From a virus: DNA of 64,000 nucleotides. Location: UHGV virus genome UHGV-0017507; one strand, written 5' to 3'. The notes beneath the pieces were generated by a model, which was not told the DNA's origin, ran no database searches, and saw only the letters and a program-made list of their open reading frames with translations. The first letter of the stretch is position 1; each line of letters opens with the position of its first letter. Both the position numbers and the translations under genes were made by a program. Below are positions 17,239-45,225 of this stretch, piece by piece.

Positions 17239-17358
17239 AATACATCTCTCCTGTCAAAGATTTGTATTTAATGGGCGCATAATCGCCCCATGCAATGACA
17301 GTTGCATAGAAGGGTAGCGAACCCAATAACTATTATGCGCCCACAACAAATTTAGAAA

Positions 17359-18456
17359 TTATTCAGTAATTTCGTAACGGCCAACATATGCCGCCCCCAC
17401 GAACTCTGCGGAGTAAGATTTGCGTAGAGTGAAGTTCTGGCTAATATCAGCGTTGTCATAGAACTGATTGCTATTGGTTAGAGTGGTACTCATAGCCATA
17501 ACAACAGGCTTAGCAACAGCAGCAGACACAACATACAGGGTGTTGTCATCCAGAGCCATGCCAAAGTCAGCAGAACCAGTAGGGGCCTGGGGTAGCTCAT
17601 AGATACCGAAACCATAGAAGTCCTTCACATAAGAGATAACAGGGTCACGACCATCAATGACCAGACGGCCACCCAGAGTGCTGTCAGGTAGAACGTTCAT
17701 TAGAGCAGCAGCAGTACCCATGATGACAGGCTTGGCCATCATATTATAAGCCTGAACACGCTGAGCCAGCTGAACCAGCTTCTTACCATCAAATGCGCCA
17801 GTTTCCTTAAACTGAGTGGGATAGGTGCCAGCGGCCAGACCAGCGTTCAGAGAAGCAATGATCTCAGCGTTCATGTCAAGCTCAATGGAGATGATAATAG
17901 CACGAACGGCCTCGGCCAGGTCATCCTTACCAGCCAGAACACGAGCCATGTCAACATAAGTGGTAATAATATGCTCAACGGGGCTGATTTCAACGTTGCC
18001 AGCATACTTCTTCTGACGGAAAGAGGTACGCTCACCACGAGCGCCACGAGACACAGTATACAGAGTCTTGGGAGGAATCTTCAGATTCACGACATCAGCA
18101 TAGCCAACAGTACGGAAGTCCACGAAGGGAGCAAAGGTAGCCTGAACATAAGCAGGCAGAACCACGTTGATAGTGGCGTTAATCAGAGCAAAGTTGGCAT
18201 AGCGTAGCATGGGGTTGGCCAGAGCCACATCCATGTTGTTCTTGTCAATCTTCTGCCCAGAGATGCGCTCAAGCTCAGCGAAATAAGCCTCACGAATCAG
18301 AGGAGCCTTCTCAGCAATGGTACGAGACTTATCATAAGAACCCATGTTCTGGCCCCACTCTTCAGCGGCCTTGTGATTATGATAGTCAGCAAAAGCAGTA
18401 TAGAAAGTGGTATCGCCCTTGGCAAAAGCCACTACTTCATTAGGCATAACAGACAT
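17359..18456 (-). CDS. Major capsid protein (HK97-like).
   Basis: 365 aa. Position is protease/scaffold, then a small protein, then this ORF. GC-rich codons fit high expression. Size is typical of an HK97-fold capsid protein. Confidence 0.55.
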   Translation of the reverse strand: MSVMPNEVVAFAKGDTTFYTAFADYHNHKAAEEWGQNMGSYDKSRTIAEKAPLIREAYFAELERISGQKIDKNNMDVALANPMLRYANFALINATINVVLPAYVQATFAPFVDFRTVGYADVVNLKIPPKTLYTVSRGARGERTSFRQKKYAGNVEISPVEHIITTYVDMARVLAGKDDLAEAVRAIIISIELDMNAEIIASLNAGLAAGTYPTQFKETGAFDGKKLVQLAQRVQAYNMMAKPVIMGTAAALMNVLPDSTLGGRLVIDGRDPVISYVKDFYGFGIYELPQAPTGSADFGMALDDNTLYVVSAAVAKPVVMAMSTTLTNSNQFYDNADISQNFTLRKSYSAEFVGAAYVGRYEITE

Positions 18457-18508
18457 ATTTATAATCTCCTTTATATTTATTTTAATAAATTTTAGTCTAC
18501 TATTAAGA

Positions 18509-19006
18509 TTAGACCAGCTTCATTAGTACCCAAGTCTTAATGAACTCGCCGCCAATGTCCATGGTACGAGCACCAAGAATCTGGAAATGAGCATCAGCAG
18601 AAGTGTTTTGTGCCTGAGCAGTTAGCTTACCGGTAGCGACAACCTTAGCAAAGCCTTCGGTGGTGGGTTCGGTAGTGAAAGCACCAGCAGAAACCTCAAT
18701 GCAGTCGCCCTTCAGTAGACGCTTAATAGAGATGGGCTTGCCAATCTCGTTAGTAAAATAGCGGGGGTCATCATAGACCTGAGCGTCCACATTGTAGCCC
18801 TGGGGAGGAGTACCAGCAACCAGTTCAGGATTGGCACCAGCAGTAACAGTGAACTCATAAGCACCATCAGAATTGGGAGACATAGCGCCCAGATTCAGGA
18901 AAGTGCCGTTATCAATTTCGGTAGTAGCGATGCCAACGAGATTCAGGCTGTCAACATCCCAATATGCTGCATGAGTGCCGTTAAACACGGTATGATTCTT
19001 AGCCAT
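18509..19006 (-). CDS. Capsid-associated protein, possibly decoration or scaffold-like.
   Basis: 165 aa with GC-rich codons, immediately upstream of the capsid gene. Confidence 0.3.
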   Translation of the reverse strand: MAKNHTVFNGTHAAYWDVDSLNLVGIATTEIDNGTFLNLGAMSPNSDGAYEFTVTAGANPELVAGTPPQGYNVDAQVYDDPRYFTNEIGKPISIKRLLKGDCIEVSAGAFTTEPTTEGFAKVVATGKLTAQAQNTSADAHFQILGARTMDIGGEFIKTWVLMKLV

Positions 19007-19077
19007 AATTAAATTTCTCCTTTATAACAATAATTTTTTTAGTTCGGTGGAGGATAATTATTCCTCAAACCAGAATA

Positions 19078-20823
19078 TTACTTGTTTTCAAGTTTTTCCC
19101 AAATACTGTTGGGGTCAGAATGTTTGATGACCTTGGGCATAGCAAAACTAAACACACCCTTATCATCTTTCTTAATAGTTTTCTTTACCTCGCTAAAGCA
19201 AGTGGCCTTAACCTTGTTACTCCAAGCATCAATATTACTCTCATCACAAGTTAGACCCTCAGCCTTAAACTCAGCAAACTGCGTGTCATTGATATAGCTA
19301 CGGACTTCCTCCATAACAGTATCAACACGACAGGCCATTTCCTTAGCAACTACAGCGGCCTTATAAGCCCGTAGTTCTTCAAGCTCAGTGTCCTTGTCCA
19401 TGATGATATGGTCACGTTCCTCAACGCTCTTTTCAAGCTCGGCAATCTTGGCCATCATCTCGTCCTCAGACATCTTAATGGGTTCCTCTTTAGGCTCGTC
19501 CTCGTCCTCATCATCCTTGTCATCAGACTCATCATCTTTATCCTTTGGGTCAGCGAACTTGGTATACTGTTCAACATTTTCAGGTTCAGCAAACTTCTTA
19601 ATGTTATCAGTTTCAGTAAACTCTTGCTTTACCTCTGCCAATTCATCAGAAATAGTCATGCCTTCCTCCGTCAAGCTAAAGTCAAGACGGTATAGTTTCT
19701 GGTCACGGTCGATAAGAATAGCAAACTTCTGATTATCCTCTTCATAAATGCTCTGAATACAATAGTCCCAAGCATCATGCTCATGGATAGCAGCATAAAC
19801 ACGTCCCCACAGGTCGCCAATGTTTACAGCGCTAAATTCAATCTCAGCCATCTTTTCCTCCTTTCCACCTTCATTGTCATCCAAATCAAGTTTCTTATAA
19901 ATCTTTTCAATTTTATTTACAACGGTAGTCTCATTCTCTTTCTTGGCATAACCAAGAGCAGAGGCAAGGCCGTCCCGGTTGTATACAAAAGTGTCACCTT
20001 TAAGTTCCATAACTGGATACTTTAGATGTTCAGAGGGAGCTTCTTCCCAACCATCTTCGACAAGCATATAGACGGCCTTAACAAGAGTAGCCTTGTTGCT
20101 GGCCTCCATAATCTTATCTCTCATGGTCGTTTTATCCACTTCGCCCCATGCCTTATCAGACATAGCCTCTTTGGATTTATCAATCTTATAAGTCTTAGCC
20201 ATACTTTCAATACGCTCCTTGGCAAACTTTTTCAAAGGGGTGAGATTATGTTCATTCATTTTGTTAAAATAAGCATCTGCTTCCTCTTGAGAGAAGCGAA
20301 TAAACGTAACGTCAGATTCAGGGCACGAGGGAGCTACCGTCTTGCCAAGAGTGGTCACAGCTGTAATAGAGAAAGATAAAACCTTATCATTCAAATCATC
20401 ACCATTCTCAGTCTCAACCCTCATCTCCACCGACACAGCCCGCTCATTATCGTCTACAAACATATCACAATATTTCTTTGCATACATTTTAGAGATAACA
20501 GCCGTTGCATAAGCCCTCAAATAACCATCATCATCTTCCACAAACTCAATTTCTTGCTCTTTGGGAAAAATACCCATGATTTGTTCGTCAGGCTCGTGCG
20601 TAGTCGCATCAGTACCAAGCCAATTCATCTTAGCTACCATCCATTTGCCCAATACCGTGCTTGCGCATTCTCTCAACACATCTTCAGAAATCTCAAGCCC
20701 ATGACTATTTGGCCTTGTGCTTAAAAATCCAACCTTGGCGATAGCAAACTCTTTTTCATCATAATCGTCAAACTGGATTTGCTGAATAGTATCAACAGCA
20801 AAGTTAATAAGTTTTTCCAACAT
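19078..20823 (-). CDS. Prohead protease-like N-terminal domain fused to an acidic scaffold-like C-terminus.
   Basis: NSHGLEISEDVL resembles the HK97-family protease motif DxHGDxI. C-terminal acidic coiled coil DDESDDKDDEDEDEPKEE. Lies between the portal and capsid genes. Confidence 0.4.
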   Translation of the reverse strand: MLEKLINFAVDTIQQIQFDDYDEKEFAIAKVGFLSTRPNSHGLEISEDVLRECASTVLGKWMVAKMNWLGTDATTHEPDEQIMGIFPKEQEIEFVEDDDGYLRAYATAVISKMYAKKYCDMFVDDNERAVSVEMRVETENGDDLNDKVLSFSITAVTTLGKTVAPSCPESDVTFIRFSQEEADAYFNKMNEHNLTPLKKFAKERIESMAKTYKIDKSKEAMSDKAWGEVDKTTMRDKIMEASNKATLVKAVYMLVEDGWEEAPSEHLKYPVMELKGDTFVYNRDGLASALGYAKKENETTVVNKIEKIYKKLDLDDNEGGKEEKMAEIEFSAVNIGDLWGRVYAAIHEHDAWDYCIQSIYEEDNQKFAILIDRDQKLYRLDFSLTEEGMTISDELAEVKQEFTETDNIKKFAEPENVEQYTKFADPKDKDDESDDKDDEDEDEPKEEPIKMSEDEMMAKIAELEKSVEERDHIIMDKDTELEELRAYKAAVVAKEMACRVDTVMEEVRSYINDTQFAEFKAEGLTCDESNIDAWSNKVKATCFSEVKKTIKKDDKGVFSFAMPKVIKHSDPNSIWEKLENK

Positions 20824-23984: not shown

Positions 23985-25838
23985 TTAAAAGACAAGTTGA
24001 ATATCATCTATATCCAAGTCATCTTCTTGCATAGATTTACTATATTTATTCTCTATTTTACTTGCTATATAATTGCCATAAGACAACACTACAGCACGGT
24101 CCTTTGTTCCACTTCTCGGCTCTTTTAATTTCACCCTACCGTCCTTAAACTCAGCGCTAAGATTAACGGCTTCAGTGATTAACATATCTATTTGTGCATG
24201 AGGGGCCATAGCCTCACCAAATTCTTCACTAGTCATATCAAAATAAGACCCATTGTCTTCCAATTGAGTCTGTTTATCTTGACTATTAATCAAAAATTTG
24301 ATATTATTACTGTCAAGTTGCCGTCTTAATTCCATCCACATAGTTGCATTTAAATCAGCCGTACCAATAATTGGTATCATACAAGCATAAGCATTATTAT
24401 CAACAGTACGTTCCACAAGGTCTTGTAATTTATTATCGGGCAATACTTGTAAATCTTTTTCTGTGCTTACAGTAAATCCATTGATTTTTCTATTACCAAC
24501 AGCCTTGTCGGGTTCCCACTGCATAGTAGTTTTGTTATATAACGTTTCGCCGCCACTACGAAGGTCAGGTATAAAATAGTCACCGTCATAATCCCAAAAC
24601 AATTCTCTAGCTCTATCCGCAGAACCCAGACTATCACTCGCCTCATGCCCCTCTATATAATCTACATGACGTTCAAACCGATTACCCTTCCAATGTAAAG
24701 ACATTAACATAATAATCGTATTATCGTTCTTTTCATGAGACGTTGTATTAGCAAAAGCATAGTCCGTGATTACTAAACGTACTTCATTGGTCTTTTTCGG
24801 CGGATTACCCATATCTTTATTCACATAAAGATCGATTACTGAAGGCGGGTTAAAAGCTTGCTCAATAATTTGATTATTCTTAAAAGATTTATAAGAAAAG
24901 AACGCATCTTCAGCTTCGCCAATGGCTTCATTATATAACTCTTGACGAATAATCATTTCAGAATCATTCTTTAAAGCCTCTAACAAATATTCTTCTGTTT
25001 TCAACCCTTCTTCAATGACATTAAAAATATCAAAGGCAAAGACCTTATATGACACCCTGCGGCTCATATAATACCCAGTAACACAGTTGGTAAAATCTTT
25101 ATAAGCCCAATCTGACTTAAAACGGTTAGATGTAATATATGTAGTCTTAGCCTGTTCAACCCATCGCTTTTGTTTCTTAAACTCCTCGTTGGTTCGCATA
25201 AAGTCGATTTGTCGAGGTCGGCGCATAGGGTTAAAGACAGCAGAAATGATGTGCTTTTTTAGTTGCATAGCTTCTTCAAGAATTAACCAAGTACAACGCT
25301 CACCTCTTGCCGAATCCACCATAGGCAATACTCGAATACTCGACCCATTAAATGGAAACAGTACCACAGCCACATCGTTATCTCTCTTAACCTGAATCAT
25401 ACCAAGTTCTAAGAAACGTCGTAAGACTTCTGAGTGTTTCATGATAATCTCATCACGAATCTTACGCTCAATCATCTTATTAGCCTGGTCAATGGTAGAG
25501 GCCGTAATTACAATTTCGCTGTTTGGGAATAACAAGCACCTAATAACAGCACCCAACCCCAATACATAAGTCTTGGCTGAGTTACGACTACACATATCAA
25601 ACGTGACCTGCGCATTAAACATCTGCCACAACATATAATGTTGATAAGGCAAGAGCTTCATCTTTAATCGCCATTCAGCATAAATACCTGGGTTATATCT
25701 AAACAGTGTAGTCCATTCTATTTGTCTTTCTTCTTGTATATTATCTGCATATCCAAGAAATTCCTTACCCTCTTTATCACCAACCAATTTATACTGTTGA
25801 AAAGAGGCCATTTTCTTTGCATCTGAAACAAAAGGCAT
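23985..25838 (-). CDS. Terminase large subunit.
   Basis: MCSRNSAKTY is a deviant Walker A motif. TWLILEEA is a Walker B motif. 617 aa, followed by the portal gene. Confidence 0.65.
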   Translation of the reverse strand: MPFVSDAKKMASFQQYKLVGDKEGKEFLGYADNIQEERQIEWTTLFRYNPGIYAEWRLKMKLLPYQHYMLWQMFNAQVTFDMCSRNSAKTYVLGLGAVIRCLLFPNSEIVITASTIDQANKMIERKIRDEIIMKHSEVLRRFLELGMIQVKRDNDVAVVLFPFNGSSIRVLPMVDSARGERCTWLILEEAMQLKKHIISAVFNPMRRPRQIDFMRTNEEFKKQKRWVEQAKTTYITSNRFKSDWAYKDFTNCVTGYYMSRRVSYKVFAFDIFNVIEEGLKTEEYLLEALKNDSEMIIRQELYNEAIGEAEDAFFSYKSFKNNQIIEQAFNPPSVIDLYVNKDMGNPPKKTNEVRLVITDYAFANTTSHEKNDNTIIMLMSLHWKGNRFERHVDYIEGHEASDSLGSADRARELFWDYDGDYFIPDLRSGGETLYNKTTMQWEPDKAVGNRKINGFTVSTEKDLQVLPDNKLQDLVERTVDNNAYACMIPIIGTADLNATMWMELRRQLDSNNIKFLINSQDKQTQLEDNGSYFDMTSEEFGEAMAPHAQIDMLITEAVNLSAEFKDGRVKLKEPRSGTKDRAVVLSYGNYIASKIENKYSKSMQEDDLDIDDIQLVF

Positions 25839-25842
25839 ACCA

Positions 25843-26712
25843 TCACTCCTTGGTAATAGATGGGTAGTCTCGTGTTCCAGCTATTAAATTTCTCAGAGGC
25901 CGCATAAGCTGGTCTTCAAGATGATGACAGCCACAATAATCTTCATAAACCGTAATATCTTCAAGTTCTGCTGGTTTATATTTTTCCATCATTGCTATTT
26001 GATATTCCAAGGTCTTTTCAACATCAGTCTTAGTATTGCTTTGAAATTTATCTAGCTTCAATAATTCAAGATTTTTCTTAATGCTATCTTGAGCTTTGGT
26101 AATTTCATTAATATCGCCTTTTTCATCAGCCTGACGTTTTCTAAGCTCAGCTTTGCACAAGTCTCTATATCTGAGTTCCATAGCCGTATCGATGCTAAAT
26201 AAATTCTTTGTATACATTTTATAGAATCTATTTAATATTTCATAATCCTCAACATTAAACTTGCCCCACAGCCGTTCTTGTTCAGTTAAGTCCATAGGTT
26301 TTTCCTGCTTAGTCTCATCAATCTCGCTTTCTATTTTTTGTCTTGCAACAAAATCATCAAGCATCATATCACTCTGCCAAAACCCCTCAATTTGAAAACC
26401 CATATCTTTCAGGGTATTATGGTAAGACATAAACAAATTAGTCCCTTTAGATGAACCAGACTGGCGCTTAATAGCCATATCATAATATTCTCTAATTACA
26501 GGATAACCCATTTCAGCGCATAAACACCACAACGCCCCACCATCAGACTTTAATGCCTCTTTATATATGCCAAATCTTGCGTTTAAACAAGAACGGCACA
26601 ACGGCAGATATTTATGATGGCGAGGATTTAGGCTTTGAATAAACCCAGTCTTTTCTTTCGGACTCATGCAGCCCGCACACCACATTTGAGTGTTTCTATT
26701 AAACTCTGCCAT
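25843..26712 (-). CDS. Terminase small subunit candidate.
   Basis: Immediately upstream of the large terminase. N-terminal Cys cluster and a coiled-coil middle. Start taken at MAEFNRN, which follows AGAGAGGAAAAT. Confidence 0.3.
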   Translation of the reverse strand: MAEFNRNTQMWCAGCMSPKEKTGFIQSLNPRHHKYLPLCRSCLNARFGIYKEALKSDGGALWCLCAEMGYPVIREYYDMAIKRQSGSSKGTNLFMSYHNTLKDMGFQIEGFWQSDMMLDDFVARQKIESEIDETKQEKPMDLTEQERLWGKFNVEDYEILNRFYKMYTKNLFSIDTAMELRYRDLCKAELRKRQADEKGDINEITKAQDSIKKNLELLKLDKFQSNTKTDVEKTLEYQIAMMEKYKPAELEDITVYEDYCGCHHLEDQLMRPLRNLIAGTRDYPSITKE

Positions 26713-27125
26713 ATTTTCCTCTCTATCCATAGAAAAGTGTGGCCTCTGACTCTCTCCTATCAAAGGCCACATATCCTATGAAAAATTCCTTAAATTCATA
26801 TTCACTTGTACTGGTAATTTGGCTTTAAGCCATTTGCCAGAGATATGGGCTAAGCCCTGATCACCTCCTTCATACTTTAGTCTGTAAAATGCAGACAATT
26901 GGACGCAAGGTTGTGACCCTCCTCTCATAAGAGATTTTAGTTAAGTGTCTCACTCTTTCGAGCTGACCAGATATTGATATGTCTAAATCAACACCAAGTA
27001 CAGGTACTTCGCACTTCTAACTTCATATCATTAGTTTGTTCTACTATATTCAAACTTGCTCATGCCCGTCTGCTGCCCCACAAGCATAGCAAACGTAATC
27101 AAGTTAAACATGGGCAAATGTTGAA

Positions 27126-28304
27126 TCAAAGATAATAATTACGACTCCAAGTCTTACCGCTATCGGTATATATAGCCACATAAGCGCTGGGTCGTGCAGC
27201 CACCCTAATCTTTTTAGCAAATGTATCAATTCCTACTATTGACCCGACACGAGTAAATGTCCTGTCGCCAACCTCAGTAATACCGATAGCTTTACTCTCA
27301 GGCCGATGCAAATGACCACCATAACCTTCATCAATATCAACATTATACAGATTACTAAAATAATCCATGGTCGTACTCAAGTCTTTGTCTTCGCCATGAC
27401 AGAACATAACATTGGTGCCACGAATATCCTTGATAACAATCTCCTGATAATCATTAATATTAAATCCAGCAATACCCTCATACCGTTGTTTCATATAGGC
27501 CACTACAAATTTGGTTAAATTCTCATCTTCAAATGCAGGCCGACTCTCAAGCAGTCGTTGTGTATCATGATTACCGCCAACTGTAATAACCTCAATATCT
27601 GTACCCAACTTCAGATGCAAATGTAATAACCAGCGGCACATATCCTCAGAGAATCGAATAACGGTATCAATAACAGGTTCACGCAACTTCAATAAAGACG
27701 ATGTACGTAAAATATTCTCAAAGCAATCCCCGAGGATAGCCACTTTACAATCCTGAAAATCAATACAATCAGCTTCAATTTGGTCGATTAAATTATAAAG
27801 CCGTTTCCACATGATATTATAGTCATACTGATTTACGATTTCTCCATACAAACCCTTCACAGTAAATGTAGAACCAGCGTGAAAATCAGATAAAGTAATA
27901 AGCAGAGTAGAGTCGCTATCAAGCCGATATGTATTCTCATGCTCAGGTATCTTTAATGGCTCAAGTCGGCTAATAGCTCTAATCAATTCTTCGGCGAACA
28001 TATCATTTCTGGCTTCAGCCCGTTGAATAGCATTATATTCAATATTAGTCGTAGATAGCTTAATTCTTTCAGCTTTAATTTGACTTAGTAGCTCCTGAAG
28101 TTCGCCAGTCTTGTCTTGGTCAGCCTCTTGAGTCTCAGCGTTTTTCAAAAAGATACTAAATACTTTACAAGCCCTACGCAAATACTCATCTGAGTAAACA
28201 TCACGATAGTCTGGGCCAAGAACCTCCTCGGCCCAGTCTTGATAATCAATTAACTTATCCTCAAGGTGCTGTGTCGCTAACCTCGCTTTGTTTAGATAGG
28301 TCAT
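27126..28304 (-). CDS. Calcineurin-like metallophosphoesterase.
   Basis: Motifs ILGDCFENI, VGGNHDTQ and YGGHLHRPE match the GDxxDRG / GNHE / GHxH pattern. Confidence 0.6.
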   Translation of the reverse strand: MTYLNKARLATQHLEDKLIDYQDWAEEVLGPDYRDVYSDEYLRRACKVFSIFLKNAETQEADQDKTGELQELLSQIKAERIKLSTTNIEYNAIQRAEARNDMFAEELIRAISRLEPLKIPEHENTYRLDSDSTLLITLSDFHAGSTFTVKGLYGEIVNQYDYNIMWKRLYNLIDQIEADCIDFQDCKVAILGDCFENILRTSSLLKLREPVIDTVIRFSEDMCRWLLHLHLKLGTDIEVITVGGNHDTQRLLESRPAFEDENLTKFVVAYMKQRYEGIAGFNINDYQEIVIKDIRGTNVMFCHGEDKDLSTTMDYFSNLYNVDIDEGYGGHLHRPESKAIGITEVGDRTFTRVGSIVGIDTFAKKIRVAARPSAYVAIYTDSGKTWSRNYYL

Positions 28305-29031
28305 CTACATTTTCCTCTTTCTGCTTATTAGCATATTTCCATTTAAATCCACCTGCGGTCTTTTGTCTTCTAAACGGACTACAACAGTTAGATATATAAA
28401 TTTTATTAATCCCAGTTGCTTTCTCAGCGGCAGTCATAGACTCATACACAGCAATCGTATTCTCTTCCATATCCATTTGGACTACTGGTTGAGTAATATG
28501 TACTTTTCCTTCTATTCTTTCGTTCGACTCAGCCTTAGCCGTTCTTTTCAATTTAAGCAACTTTTGAAACTCTTTTCTTGCTGATTCTCTCCGTTGTTCA
28601 ACCATCTCATCAACACAAGCACTCGCAGCTAAACTATCAGCTCTAACCTGCCTAGCATAGTCGCGTTCAGTCAAAGACCCTTCTTTTAGCCGTCTCCGAT
28701 ATTTCTTCGTAACACCCTGCATATTAATATCATTAACAAAATCATCTTCAGGAGTAAAATCCGGCCTAATATGCCCTGGAACAAGATAAGTCATTATTTT
28801 GCCGTTAGGTGCTTTTTGTTTTTGATAATAACTAGGCTCTTCCTTTACTGTGAAAGTGCCTAGTCCTGGCACTTTACAACAACCGTTATAAAAAATTTCT
28901 CGAATAATAACTTCCTGAAAAGCTCCCCACCATTCAGCCGCAGTTTGAATAGAAGAACTGTCTTTCCAACGACAAGCTTGTTTAAAGAACTCTTTGTTAG
29001 TCATCATCATACTACGAAAATTATTCGCCAT
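28261..29031 (-). CDS. HU/IHF-like DNA-binding fold fused to a C-terminal NUMOD1-like module.
   Basis: VPGLGTFTVKEEPSYYQK...NGKIMTYLVPGHIRPDF resembles the HU arm GFGxFxVxxR..RxGRNPxTG. C-terminal SNCCSPFRRQKTAGGFKWKY matches the endonuclease modules elsewhere in the window. Confidence 0.4.
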   Translation of the reverse strand: MANNFRSMMMTNKEFFKQACRWKDSSSIQTAAEWWGAFQEVIIREIFYNGCCKVPGLGTFTVKEEPSYYQKQKAPNGKIMTYLVPGHIRPDFTPEDDFVNDINMQGVTKKYRRRLKEGSLTERDYARQVRADSLAASACVDEMVEQRRESARKEFQKLLKLKRTAKAESNERIEGKVHITQPVVQMDMEENTIAVYESMTAAEKATGINKIYISNCCSPFRRQKTAGGFKWKYANKQKEENVDDLSKQSEVSDTAP

Positions 29032-29443
29032 CGTCTATATCCTCTTCATCGTTTTCATCATCTTGTTCATAATCAACTAAACTGGTTTTTGCTGGGTTTT
29101 CTTCACCCAACTGAAACAATGTAGCCGCCTTTTGTTCAGCAGACCATTTACTACTCAATCTTAACACAGTTTTCTGAAAGCCCGGAATATCACCCGGCTC
29201 TGTATAGCAATGTTCTTGTGGATTCCAACGCCTCACGCCCGAACGAGGATTAATCTGCTTCCAGCCAAAGTGCCCAATACCAGGAATTGGCACCTCAACC
29301 TGCCCCAACAAACCCTCTCTAACAATTTCTCCATAGATATCAAGAGTAGTCTTTATCATGTCTGCCGGAAACCCTGTTCTAAGAAAAATTTGATAAGCTA
29401 CTTCTTTTTGTGTAAGCCTCGGTTTTTTTGATGTATAACCCAT
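29021..29443 (-). CDS. HU/IHF-like DNA-binding protein.
   Basis: Matches the HU beta-arm pattern: VPIPGIGHFGWKQINPRSGVRRWNPQEH...IPGFQKTVLRL. Confidence 0.4.
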   Translation of the reverse strand: MGYTSKKPRLTQKEVAYQIFLRTGFPADMIKTTLDIYGEIVREGLLGQVEVPIPGIGHFGWKQINPRSGVRRWNPQEHCYTEPGDIPGFQKTVLRLSSKWSAEQKAATLFQLGEENPAKTSLVDYEQDDENDEEDIDDGE

Positions 29444-29477: not shown

Positions 29478-32087
29478 TTATGATACACTAAAATCCGCAA
29501 TCCCTTGCGCCACAACGGTTTCAGAGTTTGCAACCGCCAAACCCTTGCGCTCTCTTGTTTTTTGACGGTTGCCCTTTGTATAACACTCATCAGAACAATA
29601 AACATCTTGATGACCACGCTTTGGCTCAAATCTCCGGCCACAAATCGGACATACCTTGCCACCAATATTATTCTTTAAATTAGCAACAATGACATCACCA
29701 AAACAGGCCCATAGCATCTTTTTTGTCCCAGTCTTTTGCACAGTGTACAAATAGGCCACAAGCGTATTCACAATATAATCAAGCTTGGCCCCAGTCTCTT
29801 CAAGAATCTTGTCTCGAATATACCGATACATGAACAAATCTTCTTGATTGCTATGATTCTCATCTTCAGCCTTGAACAAATAATTCTGGTGAGTATTATA
29901 ATACTTATACCGTTCAACAATCTTACTGTTCTCTCGAATATCGAACCCAACATCTTGATTCATTAGCATTCGATAATCAAAACGGCCAACAGTCTTGCAA
30001 TATCGAATGTTCTTATCAGGAATAGATAAGCTCAACCGATTCATAGCCGATTCATTTGGTTGTTCGACTTGAGAAGGTAGCTTATCTTTAGCGAACTGAA
30101 AAAAATAAGGAACACTAGCCTTAGTATAAGACTTAATAATCTTATCAATTTCTTTTGGTCGTGTTGGCGTATATAATGTCTTAGCCGCATCAATAACAAA
30201 GTTGTTTTCCATGCACAGCCAACGCACAACATTAACCTCTTGCTGACCAACATGACCATTGTTCCAAATCTTAGTGATATTGTTACTGATAGGCCCAATA
30301 TTACCAGTTGTGTAAGCTTTTGTCATACCATCATACAACGCCTGATTATTAAGCTCTCCACCTTTAGCCTTTTTCATCTCGTAATACAAGGGTACAATAT
30401 CCTGCATATTACGTTTAGCTATCTTGGTCAAAATTCGATCTTTAATAACCAACGCCTTATCCCCATCAACATCAAATTGAAGAATCCTTGAAATCGTGTC
30501 ATGGCAACTAGTGTACACACACTTTGTCATACCAAACCACTTATCTAACTCTTCATTCCGAACATTATTCCTAATAGGCCACTCACGATACAGATGGGGG
30601 CTTCTCAAACAAGCTAATTCATCACCATTACGGTAATCTCGACAATACACTTGACCATCTTCTAATAACCCTTTGGGATTTTGATCTCCCAAAAATAGCC
30701 ATTCACAAAACGCATACAAATCAGGACTAAGAAAAGTATAATGGCCATTAACCCTAAGTCGGCCAGCTTTAGCCTGTTTAACTAGGCTTTTTTTAGTTTG
30801 TTTCAGCACGTCTCGTGAATAAGTATCTCTAAATAACTCCGGATAAACCGTCAAAGCCTCCTGAAACCAGCTCTTATCTGTATTGTACTCAGTAGCGCCA
30901 AGTAATCTCATTGTGGTCTGATAATCAGAGCCAATAGTCTCAATTTCTTCAACTGTACGTTTAGTGAGTTTTGTTATCTCATCATCAGTCATATCAGTCA
31001 AGGTTTGAAGCATCTGATAGTTAATTCTAGCCTTTGGAATGTAATCTTCTTCGATGTTACAATAACAAGCCTCACAACTGAAGTTTTTAAACTTTTCTTT
31101 ATAACAAGCCCAGCTATTGTAATATTTAGCCATCTTAAACTGGCTCTTAGTAAAGATATACTTTATACCTTCAGCAATAATCTTATGCTCTTCACCATAA
31201 ATATCACAGACAGTGGCCTCGCCCCCACATTTCTCTTGAATGAACTTATCAAACGGAAAATTAACCAATAGCCCTTTAACCCATGGCAATCTTACCATTC
31301 TGGTCTTTTCGCCCAATACCATGCCACAGCCGTCCGTATGTGGAATTGACACACCCATCTCTTTGCGCTCAATCTGGTAAGTAATATCGCTGATATAATC
31401 TACAAGGCCGGGGACAAGAGTTTCAAAGTCATCTACAACAATAGACTTGTCAATGTCAAAATCTTCCCAAACATCCGTTGCAGAGTTATTGAGGGCTAGG
31501 TAAGCAAGAAATTTATTGGGGTTGATACCACCACAGTAATTAATCTGGTCTGTTGTAAGGCCACAAGTCAACCGCCCCGCCACTTCATCGTAAGCTGATT
31601 CTTTAACAAACACAGCCCTTTTTGTACGGATTTGACCAGCTGAGGCCGTCAAGAATATGTACCTTTCACCATTATACTCAAATCCGTCAAACACCAGATT
31701 TTTAAACACCTGAAAGAAATACACATTAACAACCATAATGACATCAGTCAGCTCATTTTGCTTTAACTTCAACGCACGAGTTAAGCTACTCTCAAACAGT
31801 GAAATAACATTCTTTGTACTTAACACTTCAGGATTAAGTTTTCTGGGTACTCTATCTTCAGCCCTATTATCTAGGATTTTTGATAGCTCTAATTTTTTCT
31901 TAGTCAAAACCCTGTTAATAGCCGACTTCTTCCAGCTTAAATCTTTCTCACCCCATCTATCTTTATTTTTATACTTTTTTCTGAGCTGATACAGCCCTAA
32001 CATCTGCTTATGATAAGATTGTTCCACTGGCTCATAAAACGCATCTGTCCCAATAGACCATACAAATACTTGACGTGATAGGCTCAT
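29478..32087 (-). CDS. Single-subunit two-barrel RNA polymerase candidate of the YonO / crAss-vRNAP / QDE-1 type.
   Basis: ACLRSPHLYREWP followed about 40 aa later by LQFDVDGDKALVI at nt 30459-30473. This mirrors the RNAP beta-prime pair NRAPTLHR ... NADFDGDQMAVH. It is the first large gene after a consensus leftward sigma70 promoter. There is a C-terminal CxxC...CxxxC zinc ribbon. Confidence 0.5.
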   Translation of the reverse strand: MSLSRQVFVWSIGTDAFYEPVEQSYHKQMLGLYQLRKKYKNKDRWGEKDLSWKKSAINRVLTKKKLELSKILDNRAEDRVPRKLNPEVLSTKNVISLFESSLTRALKLKQNELTDVIMVVNVYFFQVFKNLVFDGFEYNGERYIFLTASAGQIRTKRAVFVKESAYDEVAGRLTCGLTTDQINYCGGINPNKFLAYLALNNSATDVWEDFDIDKSIVVDDFETLVPGLVDYISDITYQIERKEMGVSIPHTDGCGMVLGEKTRMVRLPWVKGLLVNFPFDKFIQEKCGGEATVCDIYGEEHKIIAEGIKYIFTKSQFKMAKYYNSWACYKEKFKNFSCEACYCNIEEDYIPKARINYQMLQTLTDMTDDEITKLTKRTVEEIETIGSDYQTTMRLLGATEYNTDKSWFQEALTVYPELFRDTYSRDVLKQTKKSLVKQAKAGRLRVNGHYTFLSPDLYAFCEWLFLGDQNPKGLLEDGQVYCRDYRNGDELACLRSPHLYREWPIRNNVRNEELDKWFGMTKCVYTSCHDTISRILQFDVDGDKALVIKDRILTKIAKRNMQDIVPLYYEMKKAKGGELNNQALYDGMTKAYTTGNIGPISNNITKIWNNGHVGQQEVNVVRWLCMENNFVIDAAKTLYTPTRPKEIDKIIKSYTKASVPYFFQFAKDKLPSQVEQPNESAMNRLSLSIPDKNIRYCKTVGRFDYRMLMNQDVGFDIRENSKIVERYKYYNTHQNYLFKAEDENHSNQEDLFMYRYIRDKILEETGAKLDYIVNTLVAYLYTVQKTGTKKMLWACFGDVIVANLKNNIGGKVCPICGRRFEPKRGHQDVYCSDECYTKGNRQKTRERKGLAVANSETVVAQGIADFSVS

Positions 32088-32206
32088 TCAGTAATCCATC
32101 CAATCCATTCTTCTAAAGTCGGCTCATATATATCGTCCCAAACTTCTGGCTCTGTGTCTTGTCCCGTTTGGGTATAAACCTCATAGCTCATCTCTCGCCA
32201 TACCAT
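32084..32206 (-). CDS. Small leader protein of about 40 aa.
   Basis: ATG after AGGTGGAAAT, downstream of the leftward promoter. The longer ORF beginning at 32272 lies inside that promoter. Confidence 0.25.
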   Translation of the reverse strand: MVWREMSYEVYTQTGQDTEPEVWDDIYEPTLEEWIGWITE

Positions 32207-32243
32207 ATTTCCACCTACTCTCTTTGGCGATTTTTCTAATTTG

Positions 32244-32272
32244 ATTATATCATGTTTTGTGCAATTTGTCAA
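32244..32272 (-). promoter_or_regulatory. Leftward early promoter matching the sigma70 consensus.
   Basis: On the minus strand it reads TTGACA-17nt-TATAAT. Confidence 0.6.
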
Positions 32273-32310
32273 GAATTATTTTGTTCATAGATTGTTTATA
32301 TTTTACCCTC

Positions 32311-32339
32311 TTGACAAACAAATAAAATGATGATATAAT
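32311..32339 (+). promoter_or_regulatory. Rightward promoter P1.
   Basis: TTGACA-N17-TATAAT with a TGa extension. Confidence 0.55.
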
Positions 32340-32445
32340 AAAATATAGAATATATAAATATATTAATTATAAATTACTAAGTTATTATATTCACATATAA
32401 GAGTATTTACATATACTTTATATACTTTAACATATATACTTTAAC

Positions 32446-32474
32446 TTGTCAATATAATATACAAAATTTATAAT
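32446..32474 (+). promoter_or_regulatory. Rightward promoter P2.
   Basis: TTGTCA-N17-TATAAT, preceded by ATATACTTTAAC-type tandem repeats. Confidence 0.5.
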
Positions 32475-32558
32475 ATACAGAATTTTGATTTTAATATATT
32501 AGACTGCGTAAGCAGGATAATATATTAAAAGAAAAATTCAAGTAAAAAGAAAAATTCC

Positions 32559-32587
32559 TTGACATTCGTTTCATCTCGTGTTACACT
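32559..32587 (+). promoter_or_regulatory. Rightward promoter P3.
   Basis: TTGACA-N17-TACACT with a TGt extension. Confidence 0.5.
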
Positions 32588-32606
32588 CATCTCATGAGGT
32601 GAAAAC

Positions 32607-32846
32607 ATGGCTAGAACAAAACAACTTAATCTTGTTGTCCGATTTAGCGGAACACCATACGTTATCAATGATCTCGGCCCAAGCAAGTCTCCTCGATTTG
32701 AGCTTTACAACGAGTCTACTAAGAATGTTGAGGCCAAATCAGATAACCCACGAAACTTTGATAATTTTGTATGGAAGGAGGATAAAAATGCTAGATTTTC
32801 TGAAAAGCTTAAAACAAAAACGAACCGAAGAAGAAAAGAAAATTGA
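32607..32846 (+). CDS. Small basic protein, the first rightward gene.
   Basis: ATG preceded by GAGGTGAAAAC. 79 aa, Lys/Arg-rich. Confidence 0.35.
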   Translation: MARTKQLNLVVRFSGTPYVINDLGPSKSPRFELYNESTKNVEAKSDNPRNFDNFVWKEDKNARFSEKLKTKTNRRRKEN

Positions 32847-33945
32847 ACTATTGCAAAAGCAACAGAGTTCTTTACAGTTGGCAATTGAAGAATTGTCTAA
32901 ACAAAGAACTGCACTTCAAAATTTGAATAACGCTGTTCAAGAGAAAATAGACAAGGCAAATGAAAATCTTCGTTTTGTCCAATCTGGATTTAATACTCTT
33001 GAAGAAGTTGGCTATGAACGCTATGTCCCTACCACCCCAGACGATATTCTTGAGGGTAAGATTTATTGGGCCGAAAACAAAATGGCAAGAATGGCCGGTG
33101 AGGGCACTATCATCCAGTATAACAGAATTTATCGTGTTGATGGGTCTGAGGCCAAAGGTAAAAAATTTCAAGAGTCATTTGGTAAGAATTTATTAATTGG
33201 TTTTAACACTTATGTGCAAACTAAAACAAAATCTATTACAGATAGCAATTACTATCATACTCGCGAACTGATTAAAAAATCTTTTGATAAATATAATAAA
33301 CAAGGCGAATTGTTGGGCATTAGTCTTAATCCATATTATGTCAACCTTCGTCTTGAAATTCTTCAATACACGCTTGAGTTAAAGATTAAAAAAGCCAAAG
33401 AAAAAGCTCAACTTCGTGAAGAGCGTAAGCGAATGCGAGAGCAAGAAAAGTTACTTGAAGATATTGCTAAAGAACAAGAACGCCTTGAACAAGAACGCAA
33501 GTCTATGGATATTGCTTTTGCTAAAGCATTAACAGAAACAGAACGTCAAAAAATTAAGGCGCAAATGAACAAGATTGATAAGCGCTTGGATGATTTGGAA
33601 TACCGTAAAGAGCATAACAACGCTGGCTGGCTTTATGTGATTAGTTCGCCTAGTCTGCCTGGCATGGTGAAAGTCGGGTGCACCAGAAGGTTGGTGCCTA
33701 CAATCAGAATTCGCGAACTCAGCTCAAGTTCTTTACCCTATGCGTTTAGAACACATTGCTTTGTTTTTAGCGACAATTGCTTTGAGCTTGAAACACAGAT
33801 GCACCATTACTTTGACAACAAGCGTGTGGCACAAGACAGAGAGTTCTTTTACATCACGCCACAAGAGGCCATTGATGTATTAAAAAACAGATTTAAACAA
33901 GAAGTCCATTTTGAGGATGTTGAGGACTGCAATGACCAAGACTGA
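32788..33945 (+). CDS. DUF4041-type coiled-coil protein with a C-terminal T5orf172 (GIY-YIG-like) domain.
   Basis: Start after AAGGAGGATAAAA. The N-terminus is a coiled coil. The C-terminal segment GWLYVISSPSLPGMVKVGCTRRL...R.RELSSSSLPYAF...ELETQMHHYF fits the T5orf172 pattern. Confidence 0.5.
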   Translation: MLDFLKSLKQKRTEEEKKIELLQKQQSSLQLAIEELSKQRTALQNLNNAVQEKIDKANENLRFVQSGFNTLEEVGYERYVPTTPDDILEGKIYWAENKMARMAGEGTIIQYNRIYRVDGSEAKGKKFQESFGKNLLIGFNTYVQTKTKSITDSNYYHTRELIKKSFDKYNKQGELLGISLNPYYVNLRLEILQYTLELKIKKAKEKAQLREERKRMREQEKLLEDIAKEQERLEQERKSMDIAFAKALTETERQKIKAQMNKIDKRLDDLEYRKEHNNAGWLYVISSPSLPGMVKVGCTRRLVPTIRIRELSSSSLPYAFRTHCFVFSDNCFELETQMHHYFDNKRVAQDREFFYITPQEAIDVLKNRFKQEVHFEDVEDCNDQD

Positions 33946-42049: not shown

Positions 42050-42078
42050 TTGACAAATAAAAAAAGATGAGTTATAAT
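42050..42078 (+). promoter_or_regulatory. Consensus sigma70 promoter for the lysin gene.
   Basis: TTGACA-N17-TATAAT. Confidence 0.55.
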
Positions 42079-42156
42079 CTAGGTATATCAGATGAGCCAG
42101 AAAATTGATTTTGAAAATCGAGTATGGAATTTAAATTAGAAAAGAGATAGAAGAAA

Positions 42157-42864
42157 ATGAATCATAAAATCTTAATCCAAATTTTAGTTTTGTTAATTGG
42201 AATTGAATTTTTTCAAATCGGAATTGAGTTTCATAAACTGAATCAAGAAATCGATAATCAAAAACGAATTGAGAAAACTCAAATCAAAACCCCAGTTGCA
42301 AAATCGATTTTTGAAATTGAGAATGGCCCGGTTGTGGGTGATGATATTGAAGCTGATGGTTGGGCTGGGAGTTTAGATTTAGATGTTCAGAATCAGATTT
42401 TTGAGGAGAGTTTAGTAGAATATTCTGCTTCACCCAAATCTAAATTTTATAATCTATCTGATGAAGATCGATATGTAATTGAGTGCATTATAGCTGGCGA
42501 GGCCAAAGGTGAATCCATGGAAGGCAAAATGGCTGTTGCGCAATGCTTGCTTAATGCTATGGCTAAAGATGGCTTGTCTGCATCTGAAGTACGGAAACAA
42601 TATCAATATTCGGGTTGGGATGATAAATTGCAAAATTCAAATCCAGAATGTTGGAATAAAGTCTGTGAGGCTGTAAGCCGTGTCTTTGACGATGGCGAAT
42701 TTGTATCAGATAATCCAATTCTGTATTTCTATGCGCCTAAGTGGGTGAAAAGCAAGTGGCATGAAAGCCTGCCCAAAGATCAGGTGATTGGCGGGCATAG
42801 TTTTCATTACCTTGAAGAAGATGTAAATGCAGATTGGTTTGTGAATTTGAAAGGAGAAAATTGA
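42157..42864 (+). CDS. SleB/CwlJ-type cell-wall hydrolase (lysin) with an N-terminal signal-anchor.
   Basis: IAGEAKGESMEGKMAVAQCLLNAMAKDG matches the SleB-domain pattern AEARGE..GQ.AVA.V..NR. The N-terminus ILIQILVLLIGI is hydrophobic. Confidence 0.5.
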   Translation: MNHKILIQILVLLIGIEFFQIGIEFHKLNQEIDNQKRIEKTQIKTPVAKSIFEIENGPVVGDDIEADGWAGSLDLDVQNQIFEESLVEYSASPKSKFYNLSDEDRYVIECIIAGEAKGESMEGKMAVAQCLLNAMAKDGLSASEVRKQYQYSGWDDKLQNSNPECWNKVCEAVSRVFDDGEFVSDNPILYFYAPKWVKSKWHESLPKDQVIGGHSFHYLEEDVNADWFVNLKGEN

Positions 42865-42865
42865 A

Positions 42866-43279
42866 ATGGAAATTTGTAATTGTTATCATGAAGATTATGG
42901 CCAGGGTAGATGCTGGGGCACCAAAGACATGGAAATCTGTTATTGTCATGGCGAAAAAGAATATTGTGATTTTTATCCAGAAGTACGTAAGAAAGGAGAA
43001 AAGAAAATGAATACAGCTGAGATGTGGGTGAAGGCCCAGGAAGACGGTCAGATTTATATTAGTAGTGATATGGCCTATTCTAAATTTCATGGTTGGGTTT
43101 CAGTTGCAGATTTTAATGAGCCTTGTGGTCTAGCAGCTTTCACAGACTTTTCAGGGGACTCAGAAAATGCTAAATATGAATTGGACGATATTATGAATTT
43201 AGAATGGGTTAAGTATGACAAGCCTGTAATGACTCGTTCGGAAGCCGAAGAAAAATTTAATGTAAAAATTGTTGATTAA
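42866..43279 (+). CDS. Hypothetical protein with a Cys-rich N-terminus.
   Basis: An internal strong RBS GAAAGGAGAAAAGAAA lies before M at 43007, so the true product may be the 90-aa C-terminal part. Confidence 0.35.
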   Translation: MEICNCYHEDYGQGRCWGTKDMEICYCHGEKEYCDFYPEVRKKGEKKMNTAEMWVKAQEDGQIYISSDMAYSKFHGWVSVADFNEPCGLAAFTDFSGDSENAKYELDDIMNLEWVKYDKPVMTRSEAEEKFNVKIVD

Positions 43280-43282
43280 GTA

Positions 43283-43311
43283 TTGACATTTGATTATTGA
43301 TTTGATATAAT
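43283..43311 (+). promoter_or_regulatory. Consensus sigma70 promoter.
   Basis: TTGACA-N17-TATAAT with a TGa extension. Confidence 0.55.
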
Positions 43312-43353
43312 CTAATAAGGCCAATGGCCAAATTAAAATAAAGGAGATTTATT

Positions 43354-43814
43354 ATGGTAAGTTTTGAACCTTTTGTTAGTTCAGATTCTTTCTCAATGAG
43401 TACGTTTAACTCAAAACTGGGGGGGCATTTGGTAAAGTTGATGAGGCGATAGCAGCAGCGGGTAATTGTAAAATTGCTACTGGTAGTTATGTCGGAACTG
43501 GGAATTCATCTGGTAATAATGATAACCCTTTGTTTGCTGTAACTTTAAATATTGGTTTTGTACCAAAAATTGTATTTATATATAATAGTGATTTTAGTAG
43601 TGGTGCCGATGCTAATTTTTGTACCGTACTAATGGAAAATTTGTATTCTGCTGTTGGTTATCAGAATTTAATGTCGTTTTCCAGTGTACCAGGAGATAAT
43701 GCTAATATTGGTAAAATTACATCTTGGAATACAACCGTATCTTTTTATGGCAATAAATTAACTTATGTCCCTAATAGCTCTAATGTAACTTATAAATGGG
43801 TTGCTCTAGGCTAA
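43354..43814 (+). pseudogene. ORF of about 153 aa split by a G7 homopolymer at 43419-43425. Either frameshifted, phase-variable, or a sequencing slip.
   Basis: Frame 1 reads MVSFEPFVSSDSFSMSTFNSKLGG and stops 9 codons after the G-run. The -1 frame then continues AFGKVDEAIAAAGNCK... to 43814. A one-base change in the G-run fuses them. Confidence 0.4.
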
Positions 43815-43836
43815 AAAAATAAATATCCAAAACCTC

Positions 43837-43865
43837 TTGACAACTTTCAATCCTTATGATATAAT
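43837..43865 (+). promoter_or_regulatory. Consensus sigma70 promoter.
   Basis: TTGACA-N17-TATAAT with a TGa extension. Confidence 0.55.
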
Positions 43866-43894
43866 CAACACATCAAAACAAAGGAGATATACAA

Positions 43895-44101
43895 ATGATT
43901 TTTGGAACAACCATTAAGGCCCCTTGTAAAGATTGTGTTGATAGATGCTCTGGGTGCCATGGTAAGTGTGAAGCTTATAAATCCTTCCGAACAAAAGTTG
44001 ATAATGATCATGCTGTTCGCAATGCTATCGCGAAAGAAAATCGGGACGTGTTCATGAGTATGCACAAAATGACTCGGGCCAGAGTTTTAGATGGATTTTA
44101 A
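43895..44101 (+). CDS. Small Cys-rich protein, a possible regulator.
   Basis: 68 aa with CKDC...CSGCHGKC. RBS AAAGGAGATATACAA. Confidence 0.4.
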   Translation: MIFGTTIKAPCKDCVDRCSGCHGKCEAYKSFRTKVDNDHAVRNAIAKENRDVFMSMHKMTRARVLDGF

Positions 44102-44119
44102 AAAATCTAAAAATAAGGG

Positions 44120-44148
44120 TTGACAAAGCCAAGATTGTGTGGTAGAAT
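44120..44148 (+). promoter_or_regulatory. Promoter of the tRNA and long noncoding region.
   Basis: TTGACA-N17-TAGAAT with a TGg extension. It closely matches the integrase promoter (tgtggTAGAAT versus tgtggTAGACT). Confidence 0.5.
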
Positions 44149-44194
44149 CTAATCAAGATAAAGGTTTGCGGTGAACCTAAAAAACCGCTAACTT

Positions 44195-44271
44195 CCTCAC
44201 GCAGCTCAATTGGTTTGAGCATCCGACTTATAATCGGAAGATTGTGTGTTCGAGCCACACCGTGAGGCCCA
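44195..44271 (+). tRNA. tRNA with anticodon UAU (Ile, reads AUA) and an encoded CCA.
   Basis: Manual cloverleaf: acceptor CCTCACG/CGTGAGG, D stem GCTC/GAGC, anticodon stem TCCGA/TCGGA with loop CTTATAA, T stem GTGTG/CACAC with loop TTCGAGC, discriminator C, then CCA. Confidence 0.65.
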
Positions 44272-45225
44272 AAGACCCGGTTCTTTTTATTACTTTATTG
44301 ATGGGTCTATAAAGATAGCGATAAAGTGAGGCCATAATCCAATTGGTAGTAGAGGATATGGTGAATGTTGAACTACCACACTCGAATGGCTGGTGAGAGT
44401 ATAAACAATCCAGCTACCAGACCGCCTATTGGGGTTCTCGTGTTTTATGTTTTAAGTTGAGAGACTATAAAAACTCTCACACTAAATCGACTGACCCATA
44501 GTTGATGAAAGAGAACGAGGTCACATATCCCCGTGAAAGTAGGATGGCGGGGCAACAAATCCCACGCTTGGTTGTGCATGATGTTGCTAACAGCAATGAC
44601 GTACATTGGGTTTTATCAAACCAAGCATGAACATGACCGAGGATGCGGAGAATTGTGGTAGGGTGAAAGCGCTTTTGGCCAAAGCGTGTAGGTCATGTTT
44701 GATTATGGAAAACGATAGTGCATGAGCTTGAGTTTTCCTTTGTTTCCTTTCTGTTTTAGAAGGTGGCTTCTTCTATAATCCTCATACTCGCTACCTAGTG
44801 CCAGCAGGTTGGATGAATAAAGGCGAGTTTAAATATCCCCCAGTGCCGCAGCTAGTTGAGACGGAACGGTCTTAAAAACCGTTACATTAGAAACATCGTG
44901 GGCGCACATCCCACCTGGGGGACCAACCATTCGTCTGAGCTAACCACTAGGAGGGCGAAACTTGTTGCAGTAAGGTTAGACTGGTGAACAAGCGGTGTTA
45001 GTGCTCGTAGACGCATACTTACAGTTCGATAGAGTTCTGGGTTCCTGTGTCATAGCAAGTTGCTACACTCTCATCTTTAGTCCGTTAAGCTAAAACTATT
45101 GGCTTCTCAAGGGTTGAGCCTATCAGCCCTATCCCAAGGCCATGTTAGGCATGGCATGGCCGACCTCCTATTTCATATATGTACTTCCTTTCGCCACAGC
45201 CTCGAATTTGTTTAGAAAAAACTCT
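44272..45225 (+). ncRNA. Candidate large structured noncoding RNA of about 950 nt, of the GOLLD/ROOL-like class adjacent to the tRNA.
   Basis: No ORF of 60 aa or more on the plus strand. Visibly higher GC than the flanks. Many exact helices: 44344-50 with 44372-78; 44566-73 with 44629-36, nested over 44584-88 with 44592-96; 44670-75 with 44681-86; 45138-44 with 45155-61. Lies between the tRNA and the integrase promoter. Confidence 0.4.

Follow-up and report, generated by a model that had tools for sequence, protein, structure and literature searches.

A YonO-type single-chain RNA polymerase gene ahead of the structural arm in an SPbeta-like phage genome from metagenomes

The stretch of viral DNA analysed here, 64,000 nucleotides of the UHGV virus genome UHGV-0017507 (hereafter the window), carries on its minus strand an open reading frame (ORF) of 869 codons beginning with ATG. 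It very probably encodes the YonO-type single-chain DNA-dependent RNA polymerase of an SPbeta-like phage of ~ 90–125 kb, of a kind known only from metagenomes, largely those of the gut. The identification is drawn from homology, catalytic residues, fold, gene order and promoter, each of which was established directly. An earlier reading of the sequence alone had proposed a single-subunit two-barrel polymerase of YonO type at this place; the ORF, the motifs quoted for it and the perfect host promoter are all present in the window, and the identity to yonO, the active-site residues and a fold matching QDE-1 and RDR2 bear the proposal out. The polymerase is thus a further member of an experimentally characterised and already known family, not a new type of enzyme. 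What the window adds to the family is a gut-metagenome lineage, and with it the observation that the consensus host promoter, the single-chain two-barrel polymerase and an adjacent HU-like protein travel together far outside Bacillus.

Family, active site and predicted fold of the polymerase

The protein matches the Pfam family PF05183, named 'RdRP', over residues 121–663 (E = 1.3e-13, 51 bits against a curated cut-off of 23.8 bits; profile positions 51–556 of 582) and phrog_8308 from end to end (E = 1e-254; profile positions 2–846 of 847). Since the first match lies above the cut-off and the second is full length, the observation is not due to chance. A tblastn search matched 42 GenBank phage records. 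The yonO gene of SPBc2/SPbeta is colinear over its full length, with 46.5% identity over residues 3–822 (94% of the query, E = 0), and the polymerase of Clostridium phage D-1873 is 45% identical across 98% of the query; remoter kin, at 22–27% identity, are proteins of Enterocloster, Thomasclavelia, C. botulinum c-st and Bacillus 0305phi8-36. A large protein collection contains B. subtilis P0122, named 'DNA-directed RNA polymerase YonO' by NCBI and 47% identical to the window protein; the nearest relatives in it (65–94% identity) all come from metagenome assemblies, many of them on contigs of 85–125 kb. The family is large and widespread: when the representatives of clusters at 50% identity were searched exhaustively, 1345 clusters matched at E ≤ 1e-3, 349 of them at E ≤ 1e-30. 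No GenBank phage is close at the DNA level, since megablast of 27–35 kb of the window against GenBank phages gave no match. The closest copies in species-representative genomes (loci L002–L006 and L010) lie in metagenome bins labelled variously Gastranaerophilales, Eubacteriales, Rickettsiales, Bacilli and Clostridia. This mixture suggests that phage contigs were mis-binned into bacterial genomes and, the labels being inconsistent, no host can be assigned from the bins.

Eight residues invariant across all two-barrel polymerases were defined by Ruprich-Robert and Thuriaux (PMC2919709) and are, in QDE-1, D709, R738, K743, R962, P964, D1007, D1009 and D1011. All eight are present in the window polymerase as D252, R266, K271, R495, P497, D539, D541 and D543. 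In an alignment of the window protein with SPbeta YonO, D-1873, PMBT24, TR-TP1 and 0305phi8-36 gp99 (A1), where identity falls to 20%, they are invariant columns together with G253, G272 and G542, and the eight are kept as well in an alignment of 48 homologues (A2), SPbeta YonO sharing every one. ACLRSPHLYR (residues 492–501) and FDVDGDKALV (residues 538–547) had been likened to the active-site pair of beta-prime, rightly so: R495 and D539 are separated by 44 residues, compared with 45 in QDE-1 (R962–D1007) and 33 in Rpb1 (R446–D479; reference numbering from PMC2919709). D539, D541 and D543 probably form a metal-binding aspartate triad, the equivalent of which in SPbeta YonO is essential for catalysis (3D > 3N mutant, PMC5467207).

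The beta-like barrel has to be placed elsewhere than was first proposed. The N-terminal segment around AGQIRTKR (residues 150–161, AGQIRTKRAVFV) corresponds instead to the SxSQxR motif of the family, and the catalytic segment is HTDGCG...RLPWVKG (residues 250–272), in which the R266-x4-K271 spacing equals that of R738 and K743 in QDE-1. In a profile search of PDB sequences, in which the alignments with RDR2 and QDE-1 were weak but sensible, HTDG..G...RLPWVKG aligned with SDGIG...IRYGGYKG of RDR2, and SAGQIR with its SASQLR motif. The six-protein alignment shows SAGQIRTK to be conserved within the close clade, not invariant in distant homologues.

There is no YonO structure with which to compare the protein, because a direct sequence search of PDB chains gave matches at chance level only. 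An AlphaFold2 model was confident (mean pLDDT 85.6, pTM 0.80, from 48 homologues), and in Foldseek RDR2 and QDE-1 entries fill the top 16 places among the PDB matches (E 3e-17 to 4e-11, probability 1.00). The predicted fold, by these matches one with two double-psi beta-barrels, also matches the phage polymerases gp62, gp66 and gp96. A fold lacking such barrels, or that of a primase or other nucleotidyltransferase, would have spoken against the sequence-only proposal; Foldseek returned two-barrel polymerases, and no primase, polymerase-palm or other nucleotidyltransferase fold was among the PDB matches.

These comparisons place the protein among its relatives. Multisubunit beta/beta-prime has the two double-psi beta-barrels and the same eight active-site residues, whereas the window polymerase is one chain of about a quarter of the size. 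Foldseek similarity to bacterial beta-prime is marginal and at chance level (E 0.1–5, probability ≤ 0.12, TM below 0.08), Pfam RNA_pol_Rpb1/Rpb2 has no match in the polymerase, and neither Pfam nor Foldseek detected any of the conserved modules that multisubunit enzymes have outside the barrels, such as trigger loop, bridge helix and clamp, as reported for YonO. QDE-1 and RDR2 (PF05183; PDB 2J7N, 7Y7P, 7RQS, 7W82) have in common with it the SxSQxR, DG..R-x4-KG, R-x-P and DxDGD motifs, at 11–15% identity. Thermus phage P74-26/P23-45 gp62, the gp96 tape-measure fusion and crAss-like phi14:2 gp66 have no sequence-level match to the window polymerase and differ from it in size and accessory domains; gp66 and gp96 are packaged in the virion and act before the early genes, whereas there is no sign of virion packaging for the window polymerase.

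The compact size and the C-terminal zinc ribbon had been singled out as distinctive. They are not, since SPbeta YonO has 839 residues and the same four cysteines (CCICG...YCQSCG); the compact form with a predicted ribbon at the C-terminus is the standard architecture of the SPbeta-type clade. The cysteines C813, C816, C831 and C835, a putative metal site whose second pair is CxxxC in the window, are invariant in the 48 aligned sequences, including SPbeta YonO (P0122), and are also found in D-1873. By comparison with SPbeta YonO, the window protein has a C-terminal tail of ~ 20 residues, which is disordered in the model and peculiar to the window's subclade. For annotation the assignment is of use in that many records still label such proteins 'hypothetical' or 'RNA-dependent RNA polymerase', and the family supplies more candidates for compact, processive polymerases.

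Promoter, gene order and the proposed late transcription

The promoter ahead of the polymerase gene (Table 1) has TTGACA at 32272–32267 and TATAAT at 32249–32244, with a spacer of 17 nt. The exact TTGACA-N17-TATAAT occurs five times in the 64-kb window against 0.02 expected, once in the left arm, as the sole leftward copy, and four times in the right arm. It precedes the polymerase gene in eight related loci (L004, L005, L006, L008, L045, L048, L049 and L052), relatives with it including Virgibacillus and PMBT24, and a clade of 27% identity has an exact consensus promoter there in eight of the nine loci long enough to test. The sequence-only reading had the polymerase gene directly behind the promoter. 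The promoter stands, but a 40-codon ORF intervenes, which has a good ribosome-binding site of its own and a stop codon overlapping the polymerase start (ATGA), and is translationally coupled to the polymerase gene. This ORF is called and conserved in L048, L049, L051 and L052 (pattern MxWxEMSY...EEWIGWI); no similarity could be detected to YonP, its positional counterpart in SPbeta. The region varies among relatives: L048 has an extra 265-residue gene between the small ORF and the polymerase gene, and in L050, where it is differently organised, a 259-residue gene lies directly upstream of the polymerase gene.

That the polymerase lies ahead of the packaging, head and tail genes was confirmed by the gene order of the leftward structural arm. 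The first genes past the only sizeable noncoding stretch downstream of the polymerase are a YonG-like gene, the start of which is supported by a ribosome-binding site, and that for the terminase large subunit, followed on the same strand by portal and later tape measure. In SPbeta the order is yonR (divergent), yonP, yonO, yonN (HU), yonK, yonJ, yonI, yonH, yonG and yonF (terminase). The window follows it with a divergent control region, small ORF, YonO, HU-like protein, YonJ exonuclease, YonG and terminase, and in both the late genes are preceded by a noncoding region. Five related contigs keep the same order, with proteins matching the YonJ_CC, YonG_N and YonD_N Pfam families (PF27387 YonJ_CC in the case of the YonJ-like homologues). 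BLASTP weakly relates the product of the gene next to the polymerase to YonN (E = 4e-4, over the HU arm), and an HU-like gene lies a short way downstream of the polymerase in every phage examined, namely SPbeta, D-1873, PMBT24, TR-TP1 and the metagenome clade (L001, L044, L045 and L047 among the loci). The window differs from SPbeta in having two HU-like genes where SPbeta has one, the second, conserved in relatives, being fused to NUMOD1; in a small upstream ORF unrelated to YonP; in YonJ lying before the leader and not after it, with no YonK seen; in a leader of ~ 410 nt against > 1.2 kb, the two not detectably similar; and in coming from metagenomes, not from Bacillus.

Table 1 Features of the polymerase gene and its surroundings in the window
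Feature	Position	Strand	Evidence
Gene (869 aa) for a probable single-subunit two-barrel DNA-dependent RNA polymerase of YonO type	29478..32087	-	ORF list, Pfam, phrog, tblastn, AlphaFold, Foldseek
Beta-like barrel catalytic motif HTDGCGMVLGEKTRMVRLPWVKGLL, residues 250–274, invariant D252, R266, K271	31266..31340	-	Six-homologue alignment, RDR2 alignment
Beta-prime-like barrel, R495-S-P497 then D539-V-D541-G-D543	30459..30605	-	Invariant alignment columns
SAGQIRTK, residues 149–156, family SxSQxR motif	31620..31643	-	Aligns to RDR2 FSASQLRG in PDB-sequence profile search
Putative C-terminal zinc ribbon CPIC-x14-CSDEC, C813, C816, C831, C835	29583..29651	-	48-homologue alignment
Sigma-A-type consensus promoter TTGACA-N17-TATAAT, TG extended -10	32244..32272	-	12/12 matches
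40-aa acidic ORF, MVWREMSYEVYTQ...EEWIGWITE	32084..32206	-	Between promoter and polymerase gene; called gene in relatives
HU/IHF-like DNA-binding protein, SPbeta YonN position	29021..29443	-	PF00216 E = 9e-4, below cut-off; BLASTP to YonN
Second HU-like protein fused to NUMOD1 helix-turn-helix	28261..29031	-	PF07453 NUMOD1 E = 4e-7; HU-CCDC81 E = 6e-4
YonJ-like metallophosphoesterase/exonuclease	27126..28304	-	phrog_284 exonuclease E = 2e-35; Metallophos_2
Noncoding structured stretch, ~ 410 nt, candidate leader of the late operon, in the gap between the YonJ-like and YonG-like genes	26713..27125	-	Alignments A3, A4, A7, A8; independent folding
YonG-like gene (probable ATG start 26712) and terminase large subunit (23985–25838)	23985..26712	-	phrog_3314, TerL_ATPase

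The experimental precedent is the work of Forrest et al. on SPbeta (PMC5467207). YonO was found to be a strictly DNA-dependent, highly processive and pause-resistant polymerase that disfavours RNA templates, is induced with the prophage and is needed for plaque formation, and deletion of yonO silences 37 structural and lysis genes. The late genes form one operon starting upstream of yonK and downstream of yonN and opening with an unannotated non-coding RNA (PMC5467207); yonO itself belongs to a host-transcribed unit outside the YonO-dependent late transcript. We find that the primer-extension primers map 260 nt and ~ 480–500 nt past the yonN stop, which places the start within this interval, not to the nucleotide; a noncoding leader of > 1.2 kb follows before yonK. 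The description of the window polymerase as the first gene of the late arm consequently holds for its position and not, by the example of yonO, for its regulation.

Because of the homology and synteny with SPbeta, the same cascade, the phage polymerase being produced by that of the host and the late transcripts by the phage enzyme, is the best explanation here. Host sigma-A RNA polymerase would start at the leftward promoter and transcribe a short operon comprising the 40-residue ORF, the polymerase, the two HU-like proteins and the YonJ-like exonuclease. The phage polymerase, with a two-metal active site contributed by D252, R266 and K271 of the first double-psi beta-barrel and R495, P497, D539, D541 and D543 of the second, would then carry transcription leftward through the packaging, head and tail genes in a single long unit beginning, to judge from position only, in or just before the ~ 410-nt leader. 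Its DNA-templated activity, its specificity for late genes and its insensitivity to host regulation would likewise be as in the SPbeta experiments. Such a cascade, already part of the sequence-only reading and demonstrated in SPbeta (PMC5467207), is also supported by the single left-arm promoter against four in the right arm, by the consensus promoter in many relatives and by the lack of a repeated motif in the gaps. A motif shared upstream of the late genes was sought, as the sequence-only reading had suggested; the ten left-arm intergenic gaps yielded only matches resembling ribosome-binding sites, which fits a single late unit.

Several points weigh against this interpretation. The window phage is known from metagenome sequence alone and experiments exist for SPbeta only. 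Any late start named here is a candidate position, SPbeta itself offering no defined YonO promoter sequence. The YonJ gene precedes the noncoding leader, which is not the case in SPbeta, and overlaps the gene before it, so that the boundary between host and phage transcription differs from that of SPbeta or is uncertain; the leader structure begins ~ 9 nt past the YonJ stop, and read-through from the host promoter could occur. Finally, the closest solved structures are those of RNA-dependent enzymes.

Read-through could be taken further. The polymerase might be real while the structural arm is made mainly by host transcription continuing from the 32272 promoter, the leader serving in anti-termination or processing and the phage enzyme having some other task, such as transcription of a subset of genes or primer synthesis. 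The almost complete lack of intergenic space from the polymerase gene to the YonJ gene, the start of the leader structure right at the YonJ stop, the terminator-like hairpin just ahead of the YonG-like gene and the failure to find a candidate phage promoter motif among the left-arm gaps would all accord with this. We nevertheless consider it improbable, given that deletion of yonO in SPbeta silences exactly the structural and lysis genes, that a separate start has been mapped there, and that hundreds of phage clusters keep the polymerase next to their structural arm. An enzyme that copies or amplifies RNA, for example in RNA-based regulation or anti-defence, instead of transcribing DNA is suggested by the name of the Pfam family, by the best structural matches, RNA-dependent QDE-1 and RDR2, and by the annotation of the PMBT24, Perkons and TR-TP1 homologues as 'RNA-dependent RNA polymerase'. 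Because the SPbeta orthologue disfavours RNA templates, the family name should not be read as a functional assignment for the window protein. QDE-1 and RDR2 copy RNA in silencing pathways (QDE-1 also single-stranded DNA), whereas in SPbeta the orthologous enzyme works strictly on DNA templates and transcribes the double-stranded DNA of the phage, and an RNA-copying role here seems very unlikely. A degenerate, inactive relic, or another nucleotidyltransferase or primase, to which the absence of a direct sequence match to PDB entries and nothing further would point, is scarcely credible with all eight catalytic and structural invariants intact, strong conservation across 48 homologues and significant fold matches only to two-barrel polymerases.

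For promoter recognition by YonO, and for any cofactor of it, the most useful conserved leads in the window are the adjacent HU-like proteins, which could be architectural cofactors for the polymerase, and the structured leader. A search of the literature available found nothing on a YonO promoter or structure after 2017.

The structured RNA of the candidate late leader

We regard the noncoding stretch that separates the YonJ-like gene from the YonG-like one as a real structured RNA. The first domain is a hairpin of ~ 75 nt (~ 27040–27120) with compensatory changes, for example CCCAUG/CAUGAG, CCCCUG/CGGGGG and CCCUUG/CAAGGG, and several U-G pairs. The second is a five-helix element (~ 26800–26960), three divergent copies of which fold independently to the same architecture. 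Over 14 distinct sequences, 88% of cells are paired compared with 37–50% when the partners are slid, and both sides change in 18 of 35 pairs compared with 2–7 in the slid controls; the second leader alignment was fitted to the structure model and leans toward structure. One stem of the five-helix domain sequesters a perfect Shine–Dalgarno-like AAGGAGGUGAUC, which might engage ribosomes or 16S rRNA. A 13-bp terminator-like hairpin (26738–26771, minus strand) comes directly before the ribosome-binding site of the YonG-like gene.

The leader is at the same position in all 16 of the related loci. Seven contigs of 25–98 kb, added by a pattern scan of IMG/VR, have the element between YonJ and YonG homologues on the same strand. 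It is kept even where these homologues are only 34–35% identical to those of the window. Rfam gave no match to the leader and, in the whole window, one tRNA only; a covariance model of the leader, run on loci that included those of SPbeta, D-1873 and Paenibacillus, found no match beyond the close clade. The SPbeta leader RNA is therefore not a proven homologue; the segments that the two leaders share, CTACTAATCAA (11 nt) and CTTGCGTCC, could be due to chance.

By its position only, the leader would be tied to YonO transcription. The late transcript might begin with it as a promoter-proximal leader or initiation platform, in the manner of the noncoding RNA at the YonO start in SPbeta; alternatively it could be a cis element letting transcription pass the hairpin before the packaging genes. 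That it represents a new class of phage RNA with a functional tie to transcription of the YonO type is a tentative suggestion, and on balance we doubt it. Two other identities were rejected: the DUF3800-VIII motif of SPbeta, the hairpin of which is not conserved in the window; and a pac site, the opening point in SPbeta being between yonR and yonP and the many G-U pairs fitting an RNA of the leftward strand and not DNA.

In SPBc2 (L001) itself, the > 1.2-kb noncoding leader downstream of the YonO start contains an Rfam match to DUF3800-VIII (47.5 bits against a gathering threshold of 40.2), and just after yonN there is a sub-threshold match to the skipping-rope RNA (29.6 against 36.7 bits); the two lie at 9027–9136 and 10381–10446. 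Both are orphan motifs of unknown function.

The control region, right arm and inserted genes

The sign of the GC skew flips at ~ 32–34 kb, where the two arms meet. The control region at 32273–32577 is AT-rich. Two of the exact consensus promoters stand back to back here as a 36-nt inverted repeat (32239–32274 and 32309–32344), and four pairs of tandem direct repeats of 12–16 nt, spaced by 14–18 nt, at 32388–32484 may be operators. The equivalent yonR–yonP gap of SPbeta also houses the packaging start point (bioRxiv 10.1101/2021.11.22.469490).

The right arm holds replication and recombination genes, and carries a SNIPE/T5orf172 nuclease, deaminase, methylase, helicase, Sak4-like protein, RecJ and an integrase-like gene. 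It opens at 32578–33945 (plus strand), where a 79-codon ORF (32607–32846) overlaps a longer listed ORF in another frame, the latter encoding a DUF4041/SNIPE-T5orf172 nuclease-like protein; the pair is found opposite the polymerase operon in most of the relatives examined. The other three exact consensus promoters are clustered at 42050, 43283 and 43837 (plus strand) and are followed by a tRNA gene (44195–44268, plus strand) and a tyrosine-integrase-like gene (45280–46119, plus strand), so the rightward stretch 42050–46119 may be a lysogeny or moron region.

In several SPbeta-like phages (records H2–H18) yonO is split in two by an inserted gene (as yonO_1/yonO_2, or by a GIY-YIG nuclease), and relatives of the window have GIY-YIG/NUMOD homing-endonuclease genes in or beside the terminase gene (L050 at 16361–19474, L051 at 18823–19641, and L053, L054, L057 and L059), which in L050 is interrupted by the insertion. 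The polymerase and terminase genes of the window are both uninterrupted.

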